From: Escherichia phage vB_EcoM_Alf5
Sequence record: KX377933
Reading direction: 5' to 3' (one strand)
DNA length: 64,000 nt
Position numbers and translations under genes: made by a program. This document shows, piece by piece, positions 6,242 to 36,318 of the stretch; the stretch's first letter is position 1, and every line of letters begins with the position of its first letter. A model generated the notes under the pieces. The model did no database searches. It saw only the letters and a list, made by a program, of their open reading frames with translations, and was not told the origin of the DNA.

Positions 6242-7843
6242 ATGGACTTAAATGCTGTTAAGCAGAAGCGAGTGGAAGATGTTAGGAAAGTCCTAGCTGG
6301 AGAGTTGGGGCTTTCTGATGAAGTAAAAGAAATTATTAAATCATTCGGTAAAGACCCCTCTAAATTCCTTCCAACTCAAATTCTGACTTTATTAAGATAC
6401 ACACCAGACCAAGTTCGCCTCATCTTTAAATTGATGACTGATAAGAACTATGTAGCACCTCAACCGGGTTCTCAAGAGGTCTTTTTAAATACTAATGCTG
6501 ACTTGGTTCTCTATGGTGGTGCTGCTGGTGCTGGTAAAACTGCCGCATTGTTAATGGACTCTTTAAGATTTATTGAAGACCCTAACTATAATGCTGTATA
6601 TTTCCGTCGAAATACAACACAGTTACAAGGTGGTTTATGGCCTGCTGCAAAGAAACTATTTGGTAAGTTTGGTGGGATTCCTCACGAGCAGAAAATGACT
6701 ATCACATTCCCTTCTGGGGCGACTATCAAGTTTACCTATCTAGAACTTGAAAAGCACGCTGAAGGTCATCAGGGTATTGAATACTCAGCTATTTACTTTG
6801 ACGAAGGTACACACTTCTCTGCTTCACAGATTTCATACCTACAAACTCGTCTACGTTCTGGTGCTGAAGGTGATTCATACATGAAGATTTCCATGAACCC
6901 AGATAGAGACCACTTTATTTACGATTGGGTAGAACCATTCTTAGATGAAGAAGGTTACCCAGACCCTGAAAAGTGTGGTCGTATTCGTTGGTATGTAATG
7001 AATGATGGTGTGATGGTTTCTGATTGGGAGAGAGACAAGATTCTTGAAATGTTCCCTCTTGAGATTCCTCAAACATACACCTTCATCTCTGGTACGATTG
7101 ATGATAACCCAATTCTTGACTTCTTAGAGCCAAAGTATCGCGGTAAGCTTGAAAACAACACTCCTGTAAACGTTGCAAGACTTCGTTTCGGTAACTGGAA
7201 GGCTCGTGCAGAAGGTTCAAACTATTGGCAAAGACAATGGTGTGAGATTGTTGATTCACTCCCAGAAGATGTATTTGATGTTAGAGCATGGGACTTAGCA
7301 GCAACTTTACCATCTGAGGTTAACCCTAATCCAGACTGGACAGCAGGTGTTAAGATGGGTAAATCTAAAAAAGACGGTTGCTATTATATCATTGATGTAG
7401 TAAGATTTAGAGATAGACCCTCTGGAGTCGAAACACAAATTAATTTGACTGCTGAAAGTGACGGTAAGCGAACTGGTATTTTTATCCCTCAAGACCCAGG
7501 CGCTGCTGGTAAATCCTACGCAACATCCCTCATCAGGAAACTTGCCGAGAAAGGCTATCGTGCAAGAGCTAAACCAACAAATAAAGATAAAGTTACCCGC
7601 TTTGCGGGATTTTCTGCTGCTTCTGAAGCTGGACTTGTAAAAGTCTTGAGAGGTAGTTGGAATGAAGCTTACTTTCAAGAGCTTGAAGGCTTTTGTGGTG
7701 ATGGCAAAACTAAAGATGACCAAGTGGATGCTACCAGTGATGCTTTCAACAGTCTTAACGAAGTTAAATTATTCAAGCCACCATCAATGGGTGCTCACAC
7801 AGACTTAGTGAGAGGAAATCCATATGAGGGGCTTAGACGTTGA
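6242..7843 (+). CDS. terL: terminase large subunit
   Basis: Walker A LYGGAAGAGKTAAL; ~530 aa; GGAGG 6231-6235 before ATG 6242 (ORF-track 6227 is an in-frame TTG). Confidence 0.85.
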   Translation: MDLNAVKQKRVEDVRKVLAGELGLSDEVKEIIKSFGKDPSKFLPTQILTLLRYTPDQVRLIFKLMTDKNYVAPQPGSQEVFLNTNADLVLYGGAAGAGKTAALLMDSLRFIEDPNYNAVYFRRNTTQLQGGLWPAAKKLFGKFGGIPHEQKMTITFPSGATIKFTYLELEKHAEGHQGIEYSAIYFDEGTHFSASQISYLQTRLRSGAEGDSYMKISMNPDRDHFIYDWVEPFLDEEGYPDPEKCGRIRWYVMNDGVMVSDWERDKILEMFPLEIPQTYTFISGTIDDNPILDFLEPKYRGKLENNTPVNVARLRFGNWKARAEGSNYWQRQWCEIVDSLPEDVFDVRAWDLAATLPSEVNPNPDWTAGVKMGKSKKDGCYYIIDVVRFRDRPSGVETQINLTAESDGKRTGIFIPQDPGAAGKSYATSLIRKLAEKGYRARAKPTNKDKVTRFAGFSAASEAGLVKVLRGSWNEAYFQELEGFCGDGKTKDDQVDATSDAFNSLNEVKLFKPPSMGAHTDLVRGNPYEGLRR

Positions 7844-17502: not shown

Positions 17503-25503
<8,001 letters not shown>

Positions 25504-32648: not shown

Positions 32649-32823
32649 TCAATGAATCTATGTTTGTAGCCCTAACCTTTTCACGTTCATCATTAAGATA
32701 ATCGTCAAGAGCCTTTTCAATCTGTGAATCATCTTGACAGATGACTGTAAAGACTGTAAAGCCGTCTGTATCGTCAATTATCTTACCATAACCGCTTCTG
32801 GGATGTAACTTTTTAAGAGCCAT
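32611..32823 (-). CDS. hypothetical small protein
   Basis: 70 aa ORF overlapping the downstream gene start. Confidence 0.35.
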   Translation of the reverse strand: MALKKLHPRSGYGKIIDDTDGFTVFTVICQDDSQIEKALDDYLNDEREKVRATNIDSLIDTSRKRKKKDE

Positions 32824-32824
32824 A

Positions 32825-33208
32825 TTAGATACCTGTGCAGCTTCTGTTTTCTAAGAAATACTCAACACCATACATAGCTTTTTGCATCAAATCTTCTTTA
32901 AACTGGATACGATGGTTGAGCATAGCCTGTACATCAATATCATCATGGTGCTTCTCTTTAATATTTGCAGATTGCAGGAAATACTCTGCAAGAACGCGAT
33001 ACTGGTAGTCAGTTACCTTATCAGTCATCTCTGTCAAAGACTCTTCAGAGATTGGTTTAAGTAGCTCACCATTAGCTAGAGCAACACCTTTTACAATCTG
33101 GCAAGTATCCTCTGGAACACCTGATAAGTCCACATTTGGAAGTTCTGTTGCATTGACTGGTAAATTCATTGCCATAACCATTGCAGCAGCTAATAAAATC
33201 TTTTTCAT
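32825..33208 (-). CDS. secreted/periplasmic protein (signal peptide)
   Basis: N-terminus MKKILLAAAMVMAMNLPVNA looks like a cleavable signal peptide. Confidence 0.5.
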   Translation of the reverse strand: MKKILLAAAMVMAMNLPVNATELPNVDLSGVPEDTCQIVKGVALANGELLKPISEESLTEMTDKVTDYQYRVLAEYFLQSANIKEKHHDDIDVQAMLNHRIQFKEDLMQKAMYGVEYFLENRSCTGI

Positions 33209-33299
33209 AATGACCTCAAAGTTATATTAAATTTTGTATTACATTGAGTATAAAAATAAGCTATAACACCTGACTTGTCAACAGATTTTATAGCTTATT

Positions 33300-33600
33300 T
33301 GGCAGATTTTTTATAAGGCTACTGCCATCCTTCCATACCTTACCTTACCACACCTAACCATACCTAACCAAACTACACCATACAATACCTTGTTAAAAGA
33401 CCCTCTTAAAGACCTTTTAAAAAGGTAAGTCTCATTTTAATGTAGCTGAGACTAACTACCCGCACCTTACATCGCCATACCCAACCAAACCCAACCAGAC
33501 CGCACCTTACAGCGCCTAACCTTACCTGACCGAACCATACCTTATTAAAAGACCCTCTTAAAGACCTTTTAAAAAGGAGCCTCCGAAGAGGCTGCCTAGT
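33300..33600. repeat. composite repeat element, copy set 1
   Basis: Two G-free C-rich blocks with CC-heptamers every ~10 bp (33323-33393, 33462-33543), each followed by the 33-mer TTAAAAGACCCTCTTAAAGACCTTTTAAAAAGG (33393-33425, 33545-33577); hairpin AGTCTC/GAGACT at 33425-33461. Confidence 0.7.
33577..33600 (-). terminator. intrinsic terminator (minus strand)
   Basis: On the minus strand GCCTC-TTCG-GAGGC hairpin followed by a T-run, just after the stop of gene 33605-34045. Confidence 0.55.
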
Positions 33601-33604
33601 CAAC

Positions 33605-34045
33605 TTAGAAAGGTTTTCTACGTTGCTTGTTAATGTTAGCCTTCATAGCAGCTAAATGGTTTTGCTGTTCAATCAGTCGTGAACGTTCTTGATGGCTAAG
33701 TGCCATAGTGTTCACATTCTCAATCGCTTGAGTGGCTTGCTTTAAAGCTCGACCAATCTTACCAGACATTTTACGTTTTGCAATAGTTGCTTGATGCTTA
33801 GGTTCAACCACACGATAACCAACACCCATTGAAGCAACCAGATAAATCTTCTCTTCTTTAAGAAGCTTCTCAATAAACTTCTCAAGTCGGTTTAGACGTG
33901 TAAGCGCATAAGCCTTCATTTCATCTTCGTACTTAACAATGTCACCTTGATAAGTTGGCTTCACAATACCTAAGAAGGTGTCCATCTCAGAATGTGATAC
34001 AGTGTCACCGTAACTAAACTTTGCTGCTAATGCTTTCGTATTCAT
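33605..34045 (-). CDS. hypothetical protein
   Basis: 146 aa ORF; basic C-terminus. Confidence 0.45.
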   Translation of the reverse strand: MNTKALAAKFSYGDTVSHSEMDTFLGIVKPTYQGDIVKYEDEMKAYALTRLNRLEKFIEKLLKEEKIYLVASMGVGYRVVEPKHQATIAKRKMSGKIGRALKQATQAIENVNTMALSHQERSRLIEQQNHLAAMKANINKQRRKPF

Positions 34046-34047
34046 AA

Positions 34048-34653
<606 letters not shown>

Positions 34654-34699
34654 TTAGTTGATTGTTAAGTTGTTTGTAAAGAACCCTCAACAGAAGACT

Positions 34700-34965
34700 C
34701 TTTAGAAACTTGGTAGATTTTTAACGTGGCTACTACCATCCACCCATACCAGACCTAACCCGACCGCACCGAACCTGACCAGACCTCACAGCGCCACACC
34801 TCATTAAAAGACCCTGTTTAAAGACCTTTTAAAAAGGTAAGTCTCATTTTAATGTAGCTGAGACTAACTACCCATACCAAACAGCACCGCACTATGCCTT
34901 ACCCCACCTCACCGAGCCTCGCCCCACATCACTTAAAAAACCCTTTTCAAAGACTCTTAAGTGAT
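34700..34965. repeat. composite repeat element, copy set 2
   Basis: Second copy of GGCTACTRCCATCC + phased C-rich block + 33-mer (34804-34837) + identical hairpin GTAAGTCTCATTTTAATGTAGCTGAGACTAACTACCC (34838-34873) + second C-rich block and a degenerate 33-mer. Confidence 0.7.
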
Positions 34966-35181
34966 GTTGGTGAGTACCCGTTGGTTTATGCTGCTCAGTA
35001 TACTCACCAAATTTTCTATGTCAACAACTTTTTATAAAAAAGTTCTGATAGCTATATGTGTCACGAAACAAAAGATTGTAAACAAGACACCCATTGCAAA
35101 AGATGTGTCCAAAAGCTTACTTGCAACGTATGACAATACAAAGACAACCAGTATAAACAGAATGACTGTACTGAACATAGT

Positions 35182-36318
35182 TTATTCATAATCCCTAATA
35201 ACTAGCCCTACAGGGAACTGTAAAGACCCCTTACGAGTCATCTTCTGGAACTGAACCGTTAAAGGTTTCCCGATAAACTCTTCAGGGTGTTCAGCAAGAT
35301 ACTGTTTCTTCTCGTGAGTAGTCTTCCATGAAACATCTACAAAGACGTTAGGAAGAGTCTCTACAACGAACTTACCATGACCACGCTTATCGGTCTTGAC
35401 ACCAGTCACTTTAAACTCTTCAGTGTGCATCTTCTTGTGCTTAATCAAGAAGTATGAACGGTGACAACACTCATAGAAGGAGTCTTCAGAGATTGAACGG
35501 TACATTGCACCTTCAAACTTAGCTTCAACCCACTTATCATGAGCTTCATCAAACTCTTCCCAAGAATTTACACGGATAGTCTGTACAGGAACAACTCTAC
35601 AGGTATCCCCAAGCTCAACAATAGGTGAGTTATCAATAACTTCACGACGTTCAGGCCAAGATTTTGAATTGTCGCAGATATCATACCAGTAGAATTTAAG
35701 AAGGTGACGGTCTGGATTGTCAGCATTCTTAATCATAGACACAATGTCTTCTAAGTCCCAACCATGAGCATAAATCTCGCCATCAAAGTCTTCAACTTGT
35801 GGATGTAATTTAAGCAACAAAAGCAAATCTGGGATTAGTTCTTCTGGAACGTTGTAAACAGTATTCTCACGAGAATAAGCCGTGAAACTAACTGAATCAT
35901 CATCTCTTGAAATTCTACAACGAACACCATCAAGTTTTGGTTGAGCATCAGCAGGGAACTTCAGGTACTTCGCATGACTAACCTTTGCAGCATCATGAGC
36001 AAGCTGTACACCTACCTTCTCAGTATTCTGTGCAGACTCTTTTGTGTAAGCATAACCTTTACGGTCAACTTGCTTTTTATACTTAGCAGCAACTTCAAAG
36101 AGAGCTTGCTGTTCAGCGTTACGCTCATTCTTTTTACCGATGTTTTTAGGTTCTGCTGTATACTCTTCAAACATCATCTTGCCATTTTCTTTACCATAGG
36201 TTGTAATAACTTTGTCACCTACAGCAACGCATGACCAGACGTTGAAAGAGCCATCTTTATTTTGTTTGTATAGGATTGTCATTTTATTCCTCTGAGTGAT
36301 ACCAAGTGTTGCAAGCAT
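35182..36318 (-). CDS. ATP-dependent DNA ligase
   Basis: 378 aa; adenylation motif I KLDGVRC (KxDGxR). Confidence 0.75.
   Translation of the reverse strand: MLATLGITQRNKMTILYKQNKDGSFNVWSCVAVGDKVITTYGKENGKMMFEEYTAEPKNIGKKNERNAEQQALFEVAAKYKKQVDRKGYAYTKESAQNTEKVGVQLAHDAAKVSHAKYLKFPADAQPKLDGVRCRISRDDDSVSFTAYSRENTVYNVPEELIPDLLLLLKLHPQVEDFDGEIYAHGWDLEDIVSMIKNADNPDRHLLKFYWYDICDNSKSWPERREVIDNSPIVELGDTCRVVPVQTIRVNSWEEFDEAHDKWVEAKFEGAMYRSISEDSFYECCHRSYFLIKHKKMHTEEFKVTGVKTDKRGHGKFVVETLPNVFVDVSWKTTHEKKQYLAEHPEEFIGKPLTVQFQKMTRKGSLQFPVGLVIRDYE

Follow-up and report, generated by a model that had tools for sequence, protein, structure and literature searches.

The VIPR (Viral Interference Programmable Repeat) systems are the subject of two 2026 bioRxiv preprints (10.64898/2026.04.26.720920 and 10.64898/2026.04.26.720927), in which they are proposed to be older than CRISPR. 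The available text of both preprints describes a minimal RAMP protein, Vipr, and RNAs of ~100 nt, the vrRNAs, each built from 9-16 YNNGG repeats with a conserved GGY, a hypervariable NN and an invariant tail, which in the clade of phage SUSP1 is a 3' pseudoknot. Each pentamer is reported to be held by one Vipr protomer with the GGY flipped out, and the NN pairs to read double-stranded DNA in the pattern NNxNNx, every third base being skipped; the skipped base is mostly the wobble position of a codon, and the R-loop triplex formed by Vipr and vrRNA silences transcription (10.64898/2026.04.26.720920, 10.64898/2026.04.26.720927). Here we describe a 64-kb stretch of Escherichia phage vB_EcoM_Alf5 (record KX377933), a Felix O1-like myophage (Felixounavirus). 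This stretch, hereafter the window, carries two repeat blocks in a 396-bp gap between the minus-strand genes 33605-34045 and 32825-33208, and we conclude that these blocks are very probably two of the four vrRNA guide genes of a type II VIPR locus.

According to the same preprints, vrRNAs flank vipr and its accessory gene, vap1, on either side in a VIPR locus. In the SUSP1 clade, 18/20 assignable guides aim at a satellite phage that resides in E. coli genomes and has tape-measure and baseplate genes in common with the helper phage (10.64898/2026.04.26.720920, 10.64898/2026.04.26.720927). Small-RNA sequencing, pull-down, green fluorescent protein (GFP) reporter and plaque assays are reported to show that the SUSP1 vrRNAs are expressed, co-purify with Vipr and repress transcription (10.64898/2026.04.26.720920). 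The preprint text further states that reprogramming of the NN positions redirects silencing, and that the accessory protein of type II systems is a predicted DNA-binding protein.

The blocks in the window are assigned as the two downstream vrRNA genes of such a locus because the gene upstream of them encodes Vipr and because the preprints describe the system. Present in the window are a Vipr gene, an adjacent vap gene, arrays flanking vipr, a pseudoknot tail and targeting with a 1-nt skip, with no self-target, as in type II VIPR of the SUSP1 clade. The 2026 preprints already describe the element for the same clade, and the residual novelty lies in orphan guides that match vipr itself and in an unexplained leader sequence. 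More than 100 genomes of Felix O1-like phages, several of them in use as biocontrol or therapy agents, carry 'repeat_region' and 'hypothetical protein' labels that recognition of the locus puts right.

Repeat arrays and the adjacent Vipr protein

The two blocks lie at 33335-33389 and 33462-33541, within the 33300-33600 segment of the original prediction. That prediction had described heptamers spaced at 10 bp on one face of the helix; the true period is 5 nt, and 10 is its harmonic. Autocorrelation of GG gave counts of 7 vs 8 and 12 vs 12 at lags 5 and 10, compared with mononucleotide-shuffle means of 1.4-3.0, and the periodicity thus survived the shuffled-sequence control at both lags. The plus strand had also been called almost free of G, which suits the first block, with 3 G in its 75 nt, but not the second, with 8 G in 87. 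It is the minus strand, the sense strand of the genes, that is informative, and there the repeat unit is the pentamer GG(T/C)NN.

The constraints on this pentamer were derived from nine Ounavirinae phages (the window, wV8, Andreotti, AYO145A, SME50, SapYZU01, SUSP2, Sf17 and ph2-2), which together contain 34 arrays and 428 pentamers. Position 1 is G in 80%, T in 13%, A in 7% and C in 0% of the units; position 2 is G in 97%; position 3 is T in 90% and C in 9%, a pyrimidine (Y) in 99%; and positions 4 and 5 are near random. All but one of the arrays (33/34) fill the space between conserved flanks with an exact multiple of 5 nt, and their lengths range from 9 to 17 pentamers. The window has four, of 11, 11, 16 and 11 pentamers, designated up1 and up2 (upstream of vipr) and dn1 and dn2 (downstream). 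A window-wide scan found in-phase GGT arrays only here and in the neighbouring intergenic region 34712-34965, with in-phase scores of 9-10/12 as against a shuffle maximum of 4. A screen on composition alone (G<=3 and C>=20 per 60 nt) also flagged coding regions at 6967, 7900, 14849, 21683, 38053, 46961 and 62065, none of which contains a pentamer array, and a scan of 32700-35400 against Rfam (E<=10) returned only chance-level matches of snoRNA type, with E-values of 1.7-9 and scores far under the gathering thresholds.

The array-bearing intergenic region was found in 229 related Ounavirinae records, the closest being that of phage XTG1, with 95.8% identity over 1.3 kb. Comparison with these relatives, which the original prediction had named as a check, has a twofold outcome: the region and its flanks are kept, but the arrays vary in sequence and number, from 1 to 5 per phage, and diverge strongly even between phages whose flanks are ~95% identical. 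The statement that no annotated feature explains the element is true of GenBank, where the relatives carry only the labels DR_4 or repeat_region.

Each array is followed by a tail that can be drawn as an H-type pseudoknot with stems Sa and Sb. Seven sequence variants from phages and satellites show compensatory changes in each stem: GTAG:CTAC, GTGG:CCAC and AAGG:CCTT in Sa, and AGTCTCA:TGAGACT, AATCGGA:TTCGATT, GGTAG:CTACC, GGCAG:CTGCC and GTCG:CGAC in Sb. The stems are fully paired in 6/7 variants, and one satellite variant has a single terminal Sb pair broken. It is this covariation that argues for a pseudoknot tail in the present phage.

The vipr product is 98% identical to the 'SUSP1 Vipr protein' of PDB entry 36pp over its full length (~191/195 residues, E 2e-128). 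All the residues that the cryo-electron microscopy paper names for contacts with GGY, with the skipped base and with the non-target strand or DNA are present (H17, K33, R39, E71, M72, K82, G87, K88, R138, C173, D177, W178 and R179), as is the G-loop. No Pfam family was matched by the window protein, which falls into phrog_4652, a family of unassigned function. Its start is placed at the ATG at 34635 (195 aa), in line with the PDB chain and annotated relatives; the open reading frame (ORF) tool had chosen a GTG at 34650, giving 200 aa. The protein at the vap1 position matches phrog_5926 and is identical in 145/146 residues to the product of the gene directly downstream of vipr in SUSP2, and the vipr-vap synteny is the same in seven relatives.

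Arrays of this kind are not confined to the Ounavirinae. An exact-pattern scan of IMG/VR for (GGTNN)x6+GGT matched at least 120 contigs, and among the matches listed at least 49 contigs contain degenerate GGYNN arrays of the same kind. In at least 15 of these 49 unrelated contigs, all-vs-all BLASTP of the flanking ORFs found a homologue of Vipr immediately next to the arrays. Degenerate GGYNN arrays are widespread in such phage contigs, often with 4-18 in tandem and separated by contig-specific punctuation (contigs L018, L028, L106, L105, L017 and L025). A second family of small proteins, of 160-176 aa, recurs beside arrays (L009, L038, L034, L067 and L106), and in two contigs, L031 and L122, the array abuts a tRNA-like sequence.

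Guide matches in a satellite phage

The satellite was located through its baseplate gene, which shares up to 94% DNA identity with window positions 19736-20279 and is present in 474/5,426 complete E. coli genomes. The satellite is ~11-12 kb long, is integrated in yecE (DUF72) or beside yciI/tonB, and carries a serine recombinase gene, a tape-measure gene and the baseplate gene; E. coli strains KBN10P04869 and H2 (NZ_CP010163) are among its hosts. Of the first six satellites checked, two (L131 and L133) have a vrRNA of their own, with no vipr-like gene annotated there. A BLAST search of the 5,426 E. coli genomes with the phage tail and leader sequence 33393-33470 gave no match.

Guides were tested against 11 satellite loci from E. 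coli chromosomes, the score being the fraction of guide NN positions matched, with skips of 0, 1, 2 and 3 nt compared and 500 shuffles for each window guide. All four guides find their best matches at a skip of 1 nt: up1 at 19/22 (0.86), in a satellite recombinase gene; up2 at 19/22 (0.86), in a small satellite gene; dn1 at 27/32 (0.84); and dn2 at 20/22 (0.91). Only for up1 did a shuffled guide reach the observed score (1/500; 0/500 for each of the others). Skips of 0, 2 and 3 nt gave best matches of just 0.62-0.77, and every top match lies inside the satellite, none in the flanking chromosome. The same register dominates across the family: when the 31 unique guides of the nine phages were run on the first six satellites, 18/31 reached 0.80 or more at a skip of 1 nt, compared with 1, 0 and 0 at the other skips. 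No self-target of 0.80 or more occurs in the 64-kb window, where the best scores were 16/22, 15/22, 19/32 and 16/22.

The two guides downstream of vap1 have distinct predicted targets. In three satellites dn2 (33335-33389) matches ATGCTAGTATTGTATATATAAGTTAACAGAATA, a segment that takes in the -10 region, TAGTAT, together with the beginning of the satellite's main rightward operon; the -10 assignment follows from the position of ATGCTAGTATTGTATATATAAGTTAACAGAATA directly after a TTGACA and most of a 17-nt spacer. The candidate target of dn1 (33462-33541), ATTTCTCAGAAATATGCAAAGGCTATTTGATTATGA, lies at the 3' end of a conserved ~235-aa satellite gene: the guide matches the nine final sense codons with the stop, then extends into the ribosome-binding site that comes next, and the base it skips is the wobble base of each codon. 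Over its first 12 NN dn1 scores 23/24 in one satellite, and its last four pentamers match poorly. Most guides have in common that their terminal, near-invariant GGTAT repeat mismatches the target, which suggests that this repeat is part of the tail rather than of the guide.

These matches give each guide of the window a concrete candidate target, one of them a satellite promoter, and predict the phage's opponent, a satellite present in ~9% of complete E. coli genomes. By analogy with SUSP1, each vrRNA would be coated by Vipr, one protomer per GGY pentamer, with the NN pairs presented to double-stranded DNA. Loaded in this manner, dn2 would silence the main promoter of the satellite and dn1 would act on its conserved gene, so that the phage would hold in check a parasite that borrows tail genes from it.

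Several points weigh against the assignment as VIPR guide genes. No perfect match to a guide was found among the 11 satellites sampled, the exact 1-nt-skip patterns of dn1 (12 NN) and dn2 (11 NN) had no match in the IMG/VR scans, and dn1 pairs well only over the first 12 of its 16 pentamers. A consensus scan showed no sigma-70-type promoter in the type-A leader that follows terminators (see below), which leaves the transcription of dn1 and dn2 unexplained. The RNA ends, the processing and the Vipr loading assumed here are carried over from SUSP1, and both source papers on VIPR are preprints.

Organization of the locus and orphan guides

On the minus strand, to which all the features of the locus given below belong, the order of the locus is a sigma-70 promoter, two vrRNAs, vipr, vap1, a terminator and two further vrRNAs, the last being the two blocks that were first noticed. 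The promoter, TTGACA-N16-TATACT (34997..35024), matches 11/12 consensus positions, opens the locus on the downstream side of the DNA ligase gene, and is kept in all relatives, including those devoid of Vipr. Between the ligase gene and this promoter lies an ORF of 48 strongly hydrophobic amino acids (35032-35178), which carries a hypothetical-protein label in phage L27. The first array is preceded by a type-B leader, ATCACTTAAGAGTCTTTGAAAAGGGTTTTTTAAGTGA (34929..34965), with 9-bp inverted arms around a GTCTTT..GGGT motif. There follow vrRNA up1 (34831..34928; 11 pentamers at 34874-34928, pseudoknot tail and U5 at 34831-34873), a type-A leader that is a variant of the 33-mer discussed below (34801..34830), and vrRNA up2 (34712..34800; 11 pentamers at 34746-34800, terminal pseudoknot tail at 34712-34745). 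A third copy of the leader motif, GTCTT..GGGTYYTT, sits in the 5' untranslated region of vipr (34676..34700). The vipr gene itself (34048..34635) encodes the 195-aa protein, by homology a vrRNA-binding effector with the RAMP fold, and is succeeded by the 146-aa accessory gene at the vap1 position (33605..34045).

An intrinsic terminator after vap1 (33571..33596), with a GC-rich stem, a UUCG loop and U5, shares its U-tract with the start of the first copy of the 33-mer. The original prediction had reported a conserved 33-mer, and exactly two copies are present, at 33393-33425 and 33545-33577, with 0 expected in shuffles. Each copy consists of CC and U5 after a hairpin, either that of the vap1 terminator or stem Sb of the tail before it, and then a 26-nt type-A leader: in copy 1 (33545..33577) the terminator CC and U5 precede the leader AAAAGGTCTTTAAGAGGGTCTTTTAA, and in copy 2 (33393..33425) the U-tract belongs to the dn1 tail. 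Beyond copy 1 lies vrRNA dn1 (33419..33541; 16 pentamers at 33462-33541, pseudoknot tail and U5 at 33419-33461), and beyond copy 2 lies vrRNA dn2 (33301..33389; 11 pentamers at 33335-33389, terminal pseudoknot tail at 33301-33334). The 33-mer may accordingly be read as a unit junction, in which a U-tract would end one transcript and the 26-nt leader would serve the next. The locus is bounded by an AT-rich inverted repeat followed by a T-run (33252..33300), whose arms at 33254-33272 and 33282-33300 confirm a palindrome noted earlier. It encloses a sigma-70-like promoter, TTGACA-N17-TATTTT (33253-33281), for the downstream 127-aa gene, which is weaker than the promoter at 34997-35024; the AYO145A record annotates a promoter at this site. 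The inverted repeat and T-run may also terminate the vrRNA transcript.

Type-B leaders (ATCACTTAAGAGTCTTTGAAAAGGGTTTTTAAGTGA) carry the same GTCTT..GGGTYTTT core as type A, and the two kinds are distributed by a strict rule over 38 junctions. Type A stands directly after a U-tract in 18/19 cases and always after a terminator-type hairpin; type B stands after a sigma-70 promoter or after a tail variant that has no U-tract in 19/19. Two kinds of junction under so strict a rule imply two modes of vrRNA production, termination with restart as opposed to processing. The window has five copies of the core motif, all within the VIPR locus: one ahead of every array and one ahead of vipr. As a general phage promoter element the leader motif was rejected; where it turns up elsewhere in the window, it is inside coding sequence or tRNA genes. 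The leader could be an unusual promoter, a processing signal or an operator; the available preprint text does not address it. A 12-mer of the type-B leader, AGTCTTTGAAAA (34943-34954), is identical to part of the spacer of the satellite main promoter targeted by dn2, TTGACAtt-AGTCTTTGAAAA-tgc-TAGTAT (satellite L129, 6604-6615; same site in L130-L134 and L143). On sequence grounds, AGTCTTTGAAAA may be a shared operator rather than mere spacer, or a chance identity (~0.02 expected).

A vipr gene of at least 90% identity is present in 116 of the 229 Ounavirinae records, and ~113 have neither vipr nor vap; these retain one promoter-driven vrRNA gene with an intact leader and a pseudoknot tail. Such orphan vrRNAs, seen for instance in ph2-2, L27, RPN213, Pr103Blw and Tf, where the DNA ligase gene is followed by a single vrRNA gene, have the same promoter, a type-B leader, 11-13 pentamers and the pseudoknot tail, and at least three different guide sequences occur among them. 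Because the Vipr-less phages keep the ligase gene and a single vrRNA at the site, the vipr-vap cassette is an insertion/deletion polymorphism flanked by directly repeated vrRNA units, an arrangement that fits gain or loss by recombination.

One of these orphan guides matches vipr. The orphan of Pr103Blw (L137, 526-580), with NN = AT AC AA GA GA CT CT AT GT CT AT, matches window positions 34135-34167 (-), codons 157-166 of vipr, in frame at 20/20 NN; only its terminal GGTAT repeat mismatches, and 0/1,000 shuffles reach 20/22. This guide is carried by 15 phage records, SP22 and mio being further carriers, and seven Vipr-positive relatives match it at 17-20/22. Among the differences at the target in Vipr-positive phages are a leucine codon altered synonymously at its first position (CTG to TTG) and a K-to-R replacement; changes of this sort would allow escape from a wobble-tolerant guide. 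The orphan guides of ph2-2/L27 and of Tf had no significant match in the 11 satellites or the window. It is conceivable, if somewhat short of probable, that the orphans are guide-only 'anti-VIPR' elements, which in a mixed infection would load a rival's Vipr and turn it on the rival's own vipr operon. The word 'orphan' is absent from the available text of the discovery preprint (10.64898/2026.04.26.720920), whose pipeline would miss these genes because it starts from Vipr proteins. The orphan guides that target vipr suggest a further layer of conflict.

Alternative explanations and known systems

A triplet with a 2-nt spacer, repeated many times, is the architecture of a TRAP site, and the arrays, with their 9-17 repeats of such a unit, could be imagined as a cis-regulatory leader bound by a ring- or filament-forming protein that controls the downstream gene. 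The arrays of other phage contigs often end right at a ribosome-binding site, which would suit such a leader. A protein-binding platform, however, would not need its hypervariable NN positions to match foreign DNA in a fixed register far above shuffles, nor would it predict the redirection of silencing on NN reprogramming that the preprint describes, and we regard this explanation as very unlikely. In the trp leader of Bacillus, as in a vrRNA, many triplets with 2-nt spacers are bound one per protein subunit. TRAP nevertheless differs from Vipr, with which it has no homology, in forming a closed 11-mer ring, in recognizing (G/U)AG, in acting by attenuation in cis and in having spacers that carry no information.

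The original prediction had favoured a replication origin, with iterons bound by an initiator and the AT-rich palindrome as unwinding element. In its favour, the region lies in a DNA-metabolism module near the ligase and thymidylate synthase genes, an AT-rich inverted repeat is present and the repeats depart strongly from randomness. The iteron reading is unsupported. A conserved sequence would be expected of iterons; the unit here is only 5 nt long, with three positions constrained and two free, and the arrays vary in both sequence and number (1 to 5) among close relatives. They flank a two-gene cassette that is absent from about half of the relatives, their neighbours are vipr/vap and a gene for a secreted 127-aa protein rather than the adjacent initiator that iterons need, and the palindrome holds a sigma-70-like promoter for the downstream gene. 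In SUSP1 the same arrays are, moreover, reported to give transcripts that co-purify with Vipr (10.64898/2026.04.26.720920). The origin has not stood up to the short unit, the unconserved arrays and the variable copy number, and we consider it extremely improbable. Iteron origins such as lambda ori, P1 oriR and those of RepA plasmids resemble the window in having tandem phased repeats beside an AT-rich segment, but the arrays share none of the traits of iterons, namely a length of 17-22 bp, a conserved sequence and recognition in double-stranded form by an adjacent initiator. The second proposal of the original prediction, a phased protein-binding or regulatory array, holds insofar as one Vipr protomer is expected per pentamer; it fails in that the array is read as RNA, a programmable guide, and not as a DNA binding site.

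Rho-loading (rut) sites on a C-rich, G-poor plus strand, stopping antisense transcription into early genes, would account for blocks of ~55-80 nt, the first of which is C-rich and nearly G-free in a rut-like manner. The near-invariant G2-Y3 of the minus strand, however, reads as R-C on the plus strand, not as the Y-C dimer recognized by Rho; other arrays of the family have many C in NN, hence G on the plus strand; and it is the minus strand, on which the arrays are rich in G, that bears the promoters and terminators identified between the genes of the locus. There is scarcely any likelihood left for this idea. Equally remote is a structural role in which GG tracts 5 nt apart form two-tetrad G-quadruplexes or promote R-loops, for example in replication priming or polymerase pausing: the non-template strand is indeed G-rich and C-poor with regular GGN3 spacing, but such structures need neither 99% Y at position 3 nor exact 5-nt multiples between fixed flanks, and would leave the linkage to Vipr and the target matches unexplained. 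The rut, G-quadruplex/R-loop and TRAP-like explanations are set aside because none of them accounts for Y3, the 5-nt register, the linkage to Vipr and the register-specific matches to foreign DNA. VIPR accounts for the data, and further candidates were dropped: boxA/NusB-E antitermination, on the resemblance of GGTCTTTTAACAA to GCTCTTTAACAA; Csp-binding GTCTTT(G/T); RfaH ops-like GGTAG; CsrA and anti-Shine-Dalgarno sponges; primase recognition sites; receptors for tRNA 3' CCA ends; and BREX GGTAAG sites.

With the blocks taken as vrRNA genes, two further described systems offer a close comparison. In the backbones of class 1 CRISPR systems (Cas7/Csm3 on CRISPR RNA), as in VIPR, RAMP-fold protomers polymerize along a guide RNA, a thumb flips out bases at a fixed period, and the variable guide ends in a conserved handle. 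On the account given in the preprints, VIPR departs from this scheme in its 5-nt period, with three bases sequestered and two read, and in a target that skips one base in three; it has no repeat-spacer array, no Cas1/Cas2 and no protospacer-adjacent motif, and its outcome is silencing through an R-loop triplex, not cleavage. The nearest relative is the VIPR system of SUSP1. The window has two vrRNAs upstream and two downstream of vipr, whereas one and three are reported for SUSP1; the guide NN sequences differ; and the unit junctions of the window (the 33-mer and the type-A and type-B leaders) are not discussed in the available text of the preprints. The two loci are alike in a Vipr that is 98% identical with the same accessory gene adjacent to it, in the build of the vrRNA (GGYNN x 9-16 and a pseudoknot tail), in a site bordered by the DNA ligase gene and the 127-aa gene in an Ounavirinae genome, and in their target, an E. 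coli satellite phage that has tail genes in common with its helper.

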